IMG/VR virus record: IMGVR_UViG_3300005326_000102
Location: 1 to 31,410 of that record
DNA: 31,410 nucleotides
Source of the DNA: a virus
Lineage: Duplodnaviria > Caudoviricetes
Direction: 5' to 3' (one strand)
The notes beneath the pieces were generated by a model, which ran no database searches, was not told the DNA's origin, and saw only the letters and a program-made list of their open reading frames with translations. Both the position numbers and the translations under genes were made by a program. How positions within the stretch are numbered: the first letter of the stretch is position 1; the number at the start of each line of letters is the position of its first letter. Below, piece by piece: positions 28,166 through 31,410 of this stretch.

Positions 28166-28590
28166 AAAAGTTTTTAATGTTAGCTGTAATGCTTTTTTTA
28201 TGCGCTGGGTATGCAAACGCTCAAGAAGAAAAAAAGTTTAGCGGGTTGTTAGACAAGGTTAGCTGGAAGCAGGGAGTTGCTTGGTCGCTGCAAGAAAGCA
28301 CGATGAATGCGTTAAGCACCGTCGAGATTATTAAATTCGAGAAATACGTTAAGGGCCTTACCTTCGAGGTGGGAACAGCTGGTGACGGTGATGATTCCGA
28401 CTGGAAGCTCGTGGTCGTTATGTCCTATCCGCTGTTAAACCTCAAGGAAAAAGGCGTAACAATCCCTATTCTTGATTTGGTTGACGCCAACGTTGGCGCT
28501 TGGTTCGGTGCTGGACATTTAAATAAAGACATGATGAATAGTCGTTCGGATTACGGAGTTAGCCTTTCGCTTCTTAACTTTAAATGGTAA
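28162..28590 (+). CDS. exported protein, possibly outer-membrane beta-stranded
   Basis: Signal ending ANA|Q; alternating amphipathic strands; ends YGVSLSLLNFKW with a terminal aromatic residue. Confidence 0.75.
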   Translation: MKKFLMLAVMLFLCAGYANAQEEKKFSGLLDKVSWKQGVAWSLQESTMNALSTVEIIKFEKYVKGLTFEVGTAGDGDDSDWKLVVVMSYPLLNLKEKGVTIPILDLVDANVGAWFGAGHLNKDMMNSRSDYGVSLSLLNFKW

Positions 28591-28599
28591 GGGGTCAAT

Positions 28600-28731
28600 A
28601 TGAATATCTTGGCTAAAATTCTGGCAACGCTGACCTATCCTTTATTCTTGGGGTTGCGTCAGCCTGACCCCGACGGGAAGGACAAGGGAATTTGGGCCGA
28701 CCTGAAAGGCATTTGGACCAACAAGGAGTAG
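28600..28731 (+). CDS. small hypothetical protein (43 aa)
   Basis: MNILAKILATLTYPLFLGLRQPDPDG...; AGGGG RBS. Confidence 0.5.
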   Translation: MNILAKILATLTYPLFLGLRQPDPDGKDKGIWADLKGIWTNKE

Positions 28732-28733
28732 CC

Positions 28734-28859
28734 ATGGGCGATATTCTTAGCGAACTTGGGAAGGCGATAGATGGAGGGAATATATTGGCGGTGCTCGTCG
28801 GTGCATTAATCATGCTTCCAATGATATGGGCCGTCTGGAAAAATAAATCAGGGGGTTAA
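28734..28859 (+). CDS. small single-TM protein (41 aa)
   Basis: MGDILSELGKAIDGGNILAVLVGALIMLPMIWAVWKNKSGG; AAGGAG RBS. Confidence 0.55.
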   Translation: MGDILSELGKAIDGGNILAVLVGALIMLPMIWAVWKNKSGG

Positions 28860-28860
28860 C

Positions 28861-29061
28861 ATGGGCTGGACTTCAATCTTTGACCTACTCAACAAGTTCG
28901 TCCCCGGACGCGAAGAAAGAATCCGAAACGACATCGACAGAATCAAAGCGGAACGAGAAAGAATAATCAAACATGAACCGTCCACACTTAAAAATATTGA
29001 GCGGCTTGCTATTCTTGAGTCTGAGTTGCACACAAAAGAGCGCGCCTTACAAAATCGTTGA
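28861..29061 (+). CDS. coiled-coil protein, i-spanin-like
   Basis: Amphipathic N-terminus plus coiled coil; overlapped out of frame by a lipoprotein ORF. Confidence 0.5.
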   Translation: MGWTSIFDLLNKFVPGREERIRNDIDRIKAERERIIKHEPSTLKNIERLAILESELHTKERALQNR

Positions 29062-29161
29062 ACCTCCTAACTTAGAGTGGGGCAAGCAGGGCGATCAGCC
29101 GACGTTGCAGAATAACTATCCGTGGGTGTGTATGAGTCAAGACCGGTACTTTTCAAAATAG
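28973..29161 (+). CDS. small lipoprotein, o-spanin (Rz1)-like
   Basis: MNRPHLKILSGLLFLSLSC lipobox-like signal; Pro-containing mature part with a second Cys; overlapped gene arrangement. Confidence 0.6.
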   Translation: MNRPHLKILSGLLFLSLSCTQKSAPYKIVEPPNLEWGKQGDQPTLQNNYPWVCMSQDRYFSK

Positions 29162-29176
29162 GGGGGGTGATTTCAG

Positions 29177-29233
29177 ATGGATTCTAAAAAGAAACCTGTT
29201 GCTAAGAAGATGATCAAGAAAGGGTGTAAATAA
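29177..29233 (+). CDS. Lys-rich micro-ORF (18 aa)
   Basis: MDSKKKPVAKKMIKKGCK; GGGGGTG RBS-like sequence; abuts the next ATG. Confidence 0.4.
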   Translation: MDSKKKPVAKKMIKKGCK

Positions 29234-29704
29234 ATGAATGAACGCCGCCAAGTCAGGGATTGGGCTATTAAGATTGGGGTATGCTTCCTGTTCGCGTTCT
29301 GCTACTCAGCAGGGGGGAGCGAAGATTTTGGCGGCTTAAAAATTCTTCGCCGGTTCCTTGGGCCGCTAATTCTGAGTGCGGGCATGGGGTATTTCTCAAG
29401 GGACTGGCGAAGCCTTCCTATGATATTGCTGATGCCGTTCTCGCTGTCGCTAGGGTATGGCGGCGATCTGGAGTGGCTTAAAATCCTCAAACGGGGCGTC
29501 TACGGCCTCGCCAACGGCGTTTCCTCGGGGTGCTACGACCTACTCAACAAACGCTGGCTACTGGCTGGCTTCCAAACTCTGCTTTTAATCGCTGCTTATA
29601 TCTCCTTTGGGGTGTATAACCCCTTCGACAACGCCCGCATCGAGGAGGGGACGCTGGGTTTTCTGGTGGCGTTTATTCCGATGATGAGCGCAAGGCGGCG
29701 TTAA
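29234..29704 (+). CDS. multi-pass membrane protein
   Basis: 156 aa with several hydrophobic segments; last gene of the late operon. Confidence 0.75.
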   Translation: MNERRQVRDWAIKIGVCFLFAFCYSAGGSEDFGGLKILRRFLGPLILSAGMGYFSRDWRSLPMILLMPFSLSLGYGGDLEWLKILKRGVYGLANGVSSGCYDLLNKRWLLAGFQTLLLIAAYISFGVYNPFDNARIEEGTLGFLVAFIPMMSARRR

Positions 29705-30072
29705 ATCTGATCTTCGGGGTCTCTTCTGTAGGGAGAAAATTGCTCGTATTCAACAAGCCCTTGGAATTTTTTGTAATTATTTTGTGGCGAGTTGGAGGGA
29801 GGCTTCTTGGCCCCGGTGGGGCGGATCTCAAATGGTTGCCACCATCCGTCCTTTAAATTCCCGACAAGGGCGGCGGTAGCGATTAGAACGTCTTTGGTGG
29901 CTGGCTTTTTGTTGGATTTTAGTTGGCTAAGGTAAGATTTGGAAATACCCATAGCGTCTGCGAGGTCTTTATCTTCTTTGAAATTTTTAATTAGGCATAG
30001 ATTTTCTATAAATCCTGGCTTAAAATAAAAGTCATATTCAAGCTCGGAATCAAACTTGTCGTTTAAAGACAT
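29701..30072 (-). CDS. XRE-family HTH repressor-like regulator
   Basis: DKDLADAMGISKSYLSQLKSNK HTH; likely start at ATG 30072 after GGAG, with the track's 30210 start less likely; divergent from a strong promoter. Confidence 0.85.
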   Translation of the reverse strand: MSLNDKFDSELEYDFYFKPGFIENLCLIKNFKEDKDLADAMGISKSYLSQLKSNKKPATKDVLIATAALVGNLKDGWWQPFEIRPTGAKKPPSNSPQNNYKKFQGLVEYEQFSPYRRDPEDQI

Positions 30073-30260
30073 CCTGACTACTCCACGATTATTTTTTAAC
30101 GGAAGGTAGCTTTTGTTAATTATCCCCCAAATCTTGCCCATGAACAAAGCATGGCATAATATGGAAGTAAAATCAAGGGAATAAAAGTTAACTGGAATAA
30201 TTTTCAACAAAAAAGCAAAATTTTACTATTACCCGACGGAAAAATATTTTAATAAACCGC

Positions 30261-30289
30261 TTGACAGTTTGCAACTGGTAAACTATACT
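30261..30289 (+). promoter_or_regulatory. near-consensus sigma70 promoter with overlapping operator-like palindrome
   Basis: TTGACA (30261-66), 17 nt, TATACT (30284-89); imperfect palindrome AGTTTgcaactggtAAACT at 30266-30284. Confidence 0.85.
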
Positions 30290-30371
30290 TTAGGTATGTT
30301 AGAAATGGCGAACGGACAATTTCCCATAATATATGACATCTTAATTTTTCCAACTAGGTTGGAGATGTGCG

Positions 30372-30410
30372 AACTCTGTTTGCTTAAAGCGAACAGGGTT
30401 TTTTTATTTT
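30372..30410 (+). terminator. intrinsic terminator/attenuator in the early leader
   Basis: aactctgtttgct / agcgaacagggtt form a 13-bp stem with 2 G-U pairs, followed by a T-run. Confidence 0.75.
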
Positions 30411-30414
30411 AATC

Positions 30415-30484
30415 GGGGTTCTCTTAGGGATTGTCCGTCCCGTCCACCTAGTAACAAAAACTAGTCATAGAGAACCCCTTTTTT
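30415..30484 (+). ncRNA. candidate C4/CI-like antisense RNA (three-way junction)
   Basis: Perfect 10-bp closing stem ggggttctct/agagaacccc; inner hairpins ggga-TTGTCCG-tccc and ctagt-aacaaaa-actag; the loop is complementary to flanking GGACAA sites. Confidence 0.55.
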
Positions 30485-30509
30485 ATTAACAGAAAGGACA
30501 AAGGACAAA

Positions 30510-31001
30510 ATGACCGAGGACGAACAAACCGTATCAGATTTTGAAGAAGCGAAGAAGCGCGGGGAGCAGCTGGAGAGGCAAGGCGGTATTTTCCTTGATG
30601 ACCAGCTAGACGAGGAGTTTATCTATCTGTCTGTCTGGAAAGTTTTGGGATTGATGGTTCTGGCCGCCGCGATTCTCTGGGCGCTTCTGGGTGTTCCGGG
30701 TTGCGCGAGCGCGGAAGAAATCAACCCGCAAGCTATCGCAGATGCAATCTATATCGCGGAAGGCGGGGCAAAGACTTCCCATCCCTACGGAATCCTGGCT
30801 CACTACAAACACACCACTCCGCGTCAGGCTTGCATCAATACAATCAACCACGCGATTAAGGACTGGAACGGCAAGGAAGATTTTATTGACTTCCTCGGTA
30901 ATCGTTATGCCCCGCTGAACGTCTCTAACGACCCAACCAACCTTAACCGAAATTGGAAAAAGAACGTCCGCTTTTATTTGGCGAAACGAGGTGCGAAATG
31001 A
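30510..31001 (+). CDS. membrane-anchored lysozyme-fold protein
   Basis: TM/signal segment VWKVLGLMVLAAAILWALLG, then IADAIYIAEGG..PYGI...FLGNRYAP...NWKKNV, resembling lysozyme-like folds with a catalytic Glu. Confidence 0.6.
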   Translation: MTEDEQTVSDFEEAKKRGEQLERQGGIFLDDQLDEEFIYLSVWKVLGLMVLAAAILWALLGVPGCASAEEINPQAIADAIYIAEGGAKTSHPYGILAHYKHTTPRQACINTINHAIKDWNGKEDFIDFLGNRYAPLNVSNDPTNLNRNWKKNVRFYLAKRGAK

Positions 31002-31410
31002 ATATTGAAATACGACGTTGGGATAAAGACGAAATAATAATCTGCGGGGAGTATGAAAATGTTGCCAAGTGCATTGAAAAGAACAAAGAAAAAAGTTTTT
31101 ATCGGGCCGACCTGAGCTCTGCCGACCTGCGCTCTGCCGACCTGCGCTATGCCGACCTGAGCTATGCCGACCTGCGCTATGCCAACCTGCGCTCTGCCGA
31201 CCTGCGCTATGCCAACCTGCGCTATGCCAACCTGCGCTCTGCCGACCTGCGCTCTGCCGACCTGAGCTCTGCCGACCTGCGCTATGCCGACCTGAGCTCT
31301 GCCGACCTGCGCTATGCCGACCTGAGCTATGCCGACCTGAGCTATGCCAACCTGAGCAAAAGATATATTCAGATCGCTTGCATAGGGTCACGCAGGGGGA
31401 TGACCACTTA
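30998..31410 (+). CDS. pentapeptide-repeat protein (3'-truncated)
   Basis: MNIEIRRWD...FYR then A(D/N)L(R/S)(S/Y) x16+, then IQIACIGSRRGMTT; runs off the window, so it is not in the ORF track. Confidence 0.9.
   Translation, partial: MNIEIRRWDKDEIIICGEYENVAKCIEKNKEKSFYRADLSSADLRSADLRYADLSYADLRYANLRSADLRYANLRYANLRSADLRSADLSSADLRYADLSSADLRYADLSYADLSYANLSKRYIQIACIGSRRGMTT
31106..31357 (+). repeat. 15-bp tandem repeat, 16 full units plus a partial
   Basis: Unit gcc(g/a)acctg(a/c)gct(c/a)t. Confidence 0.95.

Follow-up and report, generated by a model that had tools for sequence, protein, structure and literature searches.

RNA-based control of phage development is understood from work on a few enterobacterial phages, namely P1, P7, P4 and Gifsy-1. 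The locus described here raises the question of whether the early leader of another tailed phage encodes an antisense RNA that controls its own operon, and at what stage of the phage life cycle such an RNA would act. The window, by which the whole analysed stretch of 31,410 nt is meant, is a partial podovirus-like contig with terminase, portal and capsid genes. Its early leader is flanked by a divergent helix-turn-helix (HTH) gene (29701-30072) and by a phage gene starting at 30510. A preliminary description of this DNA had proposed a C4/CI-like antisense RNA switch in the leader, and a letter-by-letter check found the promoter, target, hairpin, terminator, junction, GGACAA pair and 38-codon open reading frame (ORF) to lie where it had placed them. 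The leader runs from a promoter through a start codon with the target, a terminator (T1) inside the leader ORF, a junction with a complementary loop and a U-tract to the first gene:

29701-30072, minus strand: XRE/HTH-family gene, divergent from the leader
30261-30289, plus strand: near-consensus sigma70-type early promoter, at the same position in relatives
30296-30412, plus strand: leader ORF of 38 codons, crossing terminator T1
30305-30325, plus strand: upstream target, with its core at 30312-30320, 7 nt past ATG 30305
30319-30346, plus strand: dif-like site, candidate attP, between the target and the junction RNA
30335-30369, plus strand: intermediate hairpin (predicted fold)
30371-30410, plus strand: intrinsic terminator T1, a 14-pair stem (30371-30401) followed by a U-run
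30415-30478, plus strand: three-way-junction RNA (predicted fold)
30415-30424/30469-30478, plus strand: closing stem P1 of the junction, starting with GG
30427-30441, plus strand: 5' hairpin of the junction, carrying the antisense segment 30430-30438
30448-30464, plus strand: 3' hairpin of the junction, with the second loop
30479-30484, plus strand: U-tract, six T directly after P1, predicted terminator T2 and RNA 3' end
30493-30512, plus strand: two GGACAA copies over the ribosome-binding site (RBS) and ATG 30510, possible second target
30510-31001, plus strand: first early gene, of a phage family without a Pfam or PHROG name (482 homologues)

The promoter (TTGACA at 30261-30266 and TATACT at 30284-30289) agrees with the consensus in 11 of 12 letters and is the top of six promoter-like sites in 28500-31410. 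Transcription is predicted to start near 30296, and the leader ORF would be leaderless if it begins at ATG 30296 and the transcript starts there; a second ATG at 30305 offers an alternative start with 35 codons. Beside the early promoter stands a CCGACGG-type motif followed by A's (30231-30243), which also occurs in L186, L214, L032, L085 and L159 and is a possible operator. The target core ACGGACAAT (30312-30320) has its exact complement at 30430-30438 within the junction, whose predicted stability (-26.2 kcal/mol, z -4.2) was equalled by none of 200 shuffles. The first loop had been said to expose TTGTCCG; the letters are there, whereas the predicted loop is only 5 nt long and closed by a U-G pair, so that all 7 nt would be exposed only once that pair opens. 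The GGACAA copies (30496-30501 and 30503-30508) are the sole pair less than 20 nt apart among 27 on the plus strand. As a lead only, the product of the 30510 gene is modelled as a membrane anchor with a predicted glucosaminidase-like fold; behind it a pentapeptide-repeat gene (30998-31410) runs off the contig end. The leader stretch is identical in two contigs of one sequencing run, which is possibly the source run and hence not independent, and three further runs with a small share of the window gave short unrelated pieces or nothing. The runs listed as containing the stretch included no RNA run.

Within the window alone, the match is modest. Of 232 130-nt tiles, 4 (about 2%) contain 9 nt complementary to the inside of the junction, and the upstream target duplex ranks 75 of 6,276. 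Eight junction-like elements are present in the whole window, and this one alone has a 9-nt upstream complement. By duplex energy with the junction RNA, the target ties for third among 42 gene starts. For the second loop, no convincing target was found among the 42 gene starts or in the XRE leader (best -8.8 kcal/mol), and a regulon of many RBS targets found no support.

Relatives allow the pairing to be followed beyond a single contig. Loci were gathered by alignment of the 30510-gene family from viral, genome and metagenome collections (the window itself being L139) and scanned, blind to complementarity, for a long closing stem with internal structure and a U-tail. The scan gave 43 elements in 139 distinct loci, from which 36 junction RNAs, the window included, were kept after two with too little upstream DNA and five duplicates had been dropped. 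Fourteen of the 36 match their own upstream 130 nt over at least 9 nt, compared with 45 of 1,260 swapped pairs, and the cognate mean complement was reached by none of 20,000 permutations. A distant control within the same locus gave 2 of 29 at 8 nt, and a direct-repeat control gave 8 of 36 at 8 nt, which is above background. When a second scan was anchored on promoters, with no U-tail filter, 36 of 62 leaders had an element; of the 33 non-redundant ones, 21 reach 8 nt, versus 83 of 1,056 swapped. Negative-control leaders came from a promoter-plus-dif pattern scan (91 loci, none with a 30510-family gene), and 66 unrelated promoter-anchored leaders held five elements, none at 8 nt. The target letters are diverse, 30 targets having 29 different hexamers at their centre, and a pair-type table of the targets, being complementary by construction, illustrates this variety alone. 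Among eight close relatives, two of them near-identical, 16 of 25 stem pairs in P1 and P2 are compensatory. Covariation of loop and target, which the preliminary description had suggested as a check, is found: the upstream pairing is kept, almost always with different letters. Judged by sequence comparison, the upstream loop-target pairing is under selection across the relatives and the leader feature is real; the same covariation fits pairing in cis and in trans alike.

The second proposed target, over the downstream RBS, fared less well. It is present in the window and weak across relatives, where a downstream match of at least 8 nt occurs in 4 of 36 elements and the mean was reached by 529 of 20,000 permutations. 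Some relatives have both target positions (L029, L140, L196 and L054); on these counts, a target at the downstream RBS is no general feature of the family. Five loci picked by their XRE protein all have a start codon, target and junction by eye, two-box matches being seen by eye in L220, L221 and L223 alone; the blind scan recovered two of the five correctly and took a different stem in a third.

The element is found in several other genetic settings. Six loci (L141, L159, L171, L200, L209 and L214) have the junction RNA within the coding region of their first gene, where the U-rich arm of the RNA specifies the hydrophobic N-terminal segment of the protein. The same element precedes replication-initiator-like or nuclease-like genes, so labelled by eye, at L001:1238-1296, L073:5539-5591 and L082:5887-5933. 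Since it stands there at second promoters before other types of gene, it appears to be a portable cassette that is not bound to one gene. Many relatives have, first after the promoter, an often leaderless ORF of 45-60 aa that is ribbon-helix-helix-like by eye (L002:2627-2779, L029, L147, L152, L186, L209, L050 and L059); the window lacks it, and neither of two tested gave an NCBIfam match. Two leaders, at L024:2678-2690 and L052:2485-2497, open with an identical short 5' motif that is part of a long stem and may be a further RNA motif.

The elements come in two layouts. Most relatives place the target 7-16 nt past an ATG and 20-40 nt ahead of P1, and nest a terminator-like hairpin with a U-run in the junction, the antisense following it. 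The window layout differs: its terminator lies outside the junction, and its 5' loop carries the antisense. A layout scan, likewise blind, of 182 loci (825 kb) gave 81 elements, 33 of them at 8 nt and some being mirror images of one element; the window layout is repeated in L082, L001, L032 and L049, and L183 shares it apart from having a 3' antisense. L082 has the loop letters and the 7-nt ATG offset of the window, while its stem and flanking pairs have changed together; the downstream target copy is absent. U-rich tails also stand behind most related elements. MAFFT and RNAalifold returned no consensus structure for 15 diverse or for seven window-type elements, and shared descent of the window-type elements is unproven because they do not align to a common structure.

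The position of the target just past a start codon draws attention to the leader ORF. The ORF test used 35 of 41 elements examined, six having been dropped for matches below 8, in a set chosen partly after the match had been seen and with the start codon taken nearest the usual offset. In 33 of the 35, versus 24 of 70 other frames, the leader ORF extends to the terminator or stem. It spans the element in 25, versus 8 of the 70 frames, a count inflated by several leader ORFs that coincide with the family gene. Nineteen of the 35 have a terminator between target and antisense, and none was detected in the other 16.

Folding predictions distinguish the nascent from the finished transcript. In window transcripts ending at 30440-30476, target and antisense are predicted to pair in cis (P 0.87-0.91) and to exclude P1, whereas in the transcript ending at 30484 P1 is predicted to form (P 0.98) and to leave the loop free. 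Two mutually exclusive folds of this kind are predicted in 27 of 36 elements versus 68 of 288 swaps, in a set chosen after the complements had been seen, and P1 wins in the full-length fold of 33 of 36. The half-formed junction of the window also pairs with swapped leaders (mean 10.4 and best 24.9 pairs, versus 24.1 for the cognate). Earlier in synthesis, in RNA ending at 30384-30392, the segment 30307-30316 is predicted to pair with the 5' arm of T1 as an antiterminator (P 0.68-0.84), a pairing matched by 19 of 863 tiles. As a general mechanism the antiterminator was rejected, with -11.2 in the window versus -2.5 to -5.4 in four relatives of the same layout. No gain (ddG 0) resulted when the intact junction was cofolded with the leader in a model without loop-loop kissing.

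C4 RNAs are processed by RNase P at a GG and have a tRNA-like 3' end with a CCA tail, and c4-2 was reportedly described by Weinberg in 2017 together with 223 other motifs. In the present family P1 begins with GG, and 0 of 36 junction-RNA tails begin with CCA. The accessible text of PMC5320573 describes the C4 RNA of P1 and P7 as three stems in 50-100 nt, with a variable loop that sets specificity and a P1 that begins with GG; the C4 motif is listed in the available part of PMC2864571, and c4-2 is mentioned in that of PMC5737381. Like C4 (RF01695, about 77 nt), the window element is a three-stem junction (64 nt; 47-97 nt in relatives) with a P1 that starts with GG and a loop that varies across relatives. 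It differs in having one targeted loop where C4 has a' and b', and in that the conserved target is the upstream start-codon region, whereas in C4 it is the downstream RBS. Rfam gave no gathering-score match in the window or 20 related loci, and its covariance models, including the C4 models (RF01695, c4-2 and c4-a1b1), gave no match at E 10 in 29600-30800 or at E 5 in 13 related loci. The Infernal comparison with Rfam C4 and c4-2, suggested in the preliminary description, therefore yielded no family match; the C4/CI-like switch stands as a layout like that of P4 seqA and CI, and finds no support as Rfam C4 membership or in a target for the second loop.

The closer parallel is with P4, whose CI RNA pairs with seqA and seqC and causes termination, according to the part of PMC4825925 available. 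As in P4 CI and Gifsy-1 IsrK/STnc1160, the antisense RNA of the window lies in the leader that it would control, 3' of an upstream target and a terminator (PMC4825925, PMC3632133, as far as their accessible sections go). The same sections give P4 CI complementary sites before and after the RNA and propose premature termination, as for the window (PMC4825925, PMC3632133). Unlike P4 CI and IsrK, the window RNA has no Rfam or IsrK-like match, ends in a U-tract right after P1, belongs apparently to phages of Omnitrophota-type hosts and has a probable dif attP inside its leader; most of its relatives also nest a terminator-like hairpin within the junction. A literature search, which left most subscription papers outside its reach, found no description of this RNA family.

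The dif-like site bears on when the RNA could act. At 30319-30346, the XerC-side arm agrees with the host consensus in 9 of 11 positions and the centre in 6 of 6, and the XerD side is degenerate (7 of 11). Against that consensus it is the best site in the 31.4 kb, with 15 of 17 over arm and centre. Of 301 genomes of the phylum, 125 contain the host 28-bp site, nearly always in single copy and with 0 reversed-pattern controls; the site closely resembles the B. subtilis dif published in PMC3025954, as given in its accessible part. XRE-linked relatives share a motif just 3' of the promoter. Among 401 genomes there is one strong XRE match, in G288, a genome of the same phylum as L098 (Candidatus Omnitrophota); a chromosome contig with uvrB and valS ends there in a relative's XRE gene and promoter, and a full 28-bp site (G288:C6:56092-56119) marks the end of the phage-like sequence. 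A phage junction was seen at 1 of 48 host-site loci examined, so that one prophage end, in a relative, is visible. Dif-like scores of at least 14/17 occur in 7 of 62 leaders versus 0 of 50 controls; the score is in part circular for those relatives whose match is to the arm on the phage side, and is not so for the window, whose match is to the host-side arm. Most family leaders are without a clear dif-like site. Such sites lie inside early leaders in the window, L159, L219-L223 and L024, and away from early promoters at L025:518 and 1592, L037:359, L030:56 and L056; L025 has one near-complete site and one half site. A PF00589 integrase was found in none of five related records (one of them at least 90% complete) and among none of 26 scanned proteins of the probably partial window.

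In TLC- and GGI-type attP sites, one arm and the centre resemble host dif, according to the available parts of PMC5357621 and PMC12715192. The window site is similar to the attP of TLC-phi and gonococcal-island IMEX and to the left- or right-armed attP of dif-type DJR phages, in which the XerC arm and centre are kept and the XerD arm is degenerate; in these systems, as in the window, an XRE-HTH gene adjoins the site (PMC5357621, PMC6744903, PMC12715192, within their accessible text). It differs from them in belonging to a tailed, podovirus-like phage, in lying inside a regulatory leader and in having an XRE family without a DUF3653 match. The TLC activator XafT combines an XRE-HTH with DUF3653, as the accessible text of PMC6744903 has it. 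The window XRE protein (33 relatives at about 30% identity) was ruled out as an XafT/DUF3653 protein, having no Pfam match to DUF3653; only a helix-turn-helix was identified, and a fold search gave HTH domains alone above E 0.001. It may be a repressor or an integration helper; its family, unlike XafT, lacks the DUF3653 match. The gene is inverted with respect to relatives, where it sits upstream on the strand of the promoter, and the dif-like site of the window is also opposite in orientation to theirs. Close relatives of the window phage, sought through the XRE protein and its 156-aa and 142-aa neighbours, were not found.

These similarities make 30319-30346 a probable chromosome-attachment site, and we infer that the window phage would integrate at dif; the sequences suggest Xer-dependent integration of tailed phages, with hosts that are probably Omnitrophota-type bacteria. 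Because the site lies between the target and the RNA, integration would cut the promoter and target from T1 and the RNA.

On balance, we lean towards the reading that the leader is a P4-CI-like negative-feedback attenuator, whose junction RNA acts in trans on new transcripts and leads to termination at T1. Early in infection, ribosomes on the leader ORF, aided in the window by the antiterminator pairing, would suppress T1, and the junction RNA would be made only if polymerase passes T1. In the nascent transcript, folding predicts a cis pairing of target and antisense that excludes P1 and favours read-through of T2; in the finished RNA (30296-30484), it predicts that P1 is closed and the loop free. 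Closed RNA would then accumulate and bind the first codons of new transcripts in trans, and with the target occupied, ribosome loading and cis pairing would be blocked and both terminators would fire. Of this scheme, the sequence order and the covariation are seen directly and the folds are predicted; from them we infer the translation coupling, the termination at T2 and the action in trans. Since a probable Xer site lies between the target and T1, the free phage circle would be the place of action of the loop, which would not work from the integrated prophage; on the circle it could influence early-gene timing, the choice between lysis and lysogeny, and exclusion between co-infecting genomes that share a loop.

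An unlikely alternative is a switch confined to cis, in which target and antisense pair within one transcript and hold P1 and T2 open, ribosome occupancy decides and no diffusible RNA is made. The two exclusive folds predicted in the window and in 27 of the elements would be expected of it, as would the trans cofold without gain. Yet P1 wins at full length in nearly all elements, leaving a closed RNA with its antisense exposed, and T1 separates the two partners in the window, where most transcripts would therefore stop short of the antisense. The extreme diversity of targets fits specificity groups, although drift explains diversity too.

Less likely still is the role first proposed, that of a processed C4/CI-type RNA made by the lysogen as a second layer of immunity beside the XRE repressor, with targets upstream and at the next RBS. 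The layout resembles P4, and both target positions exist in the window and in the four relatives named above; the downstream match is nevertheless rare in the family and absent in L082, and the dif-like site between target and RNA, together with the relative cut there in G288, implies that the prophage RNA loses its promoter. A role in lysogen immunity beside the XRE protein is therefore doubtful. That the leader holds two tandem terminators only, with the window complement a matter of chance or a relic, is highly improbable: in its favour are the window-only probability of about 2% and the failure to find a close relative of the window phage, but L082 has the layout, loop letters and offset of the window together with compensated flanks, and the excess of complements extends across the family.

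The feedback attenuator that we favour has wider implications. A similar structure with unrelated sequence in dozens of phages, probably of Omnitrophota hosts, would make this design widespread, and the natural variants of loop and target are ready orthogonal pairs for testing cis against trans action. It is possible, if somewhat doubtful, that the elements form an uncatalogued family of trans-acting feedback RNAs with fast-diversifying loop/target pairs, in which XerCD integration, by severing the leader, would be the off switch of the early operon and the RNA would time integration of the free circle, with no need for an integrase or a CI-type repressor. The host-site survey provides a dif consensus for the phylum, and the dif-like site in the leader ties the RNA to an integrase-free lysogeny of tailed phages and predicts both their host and their point of insertion.
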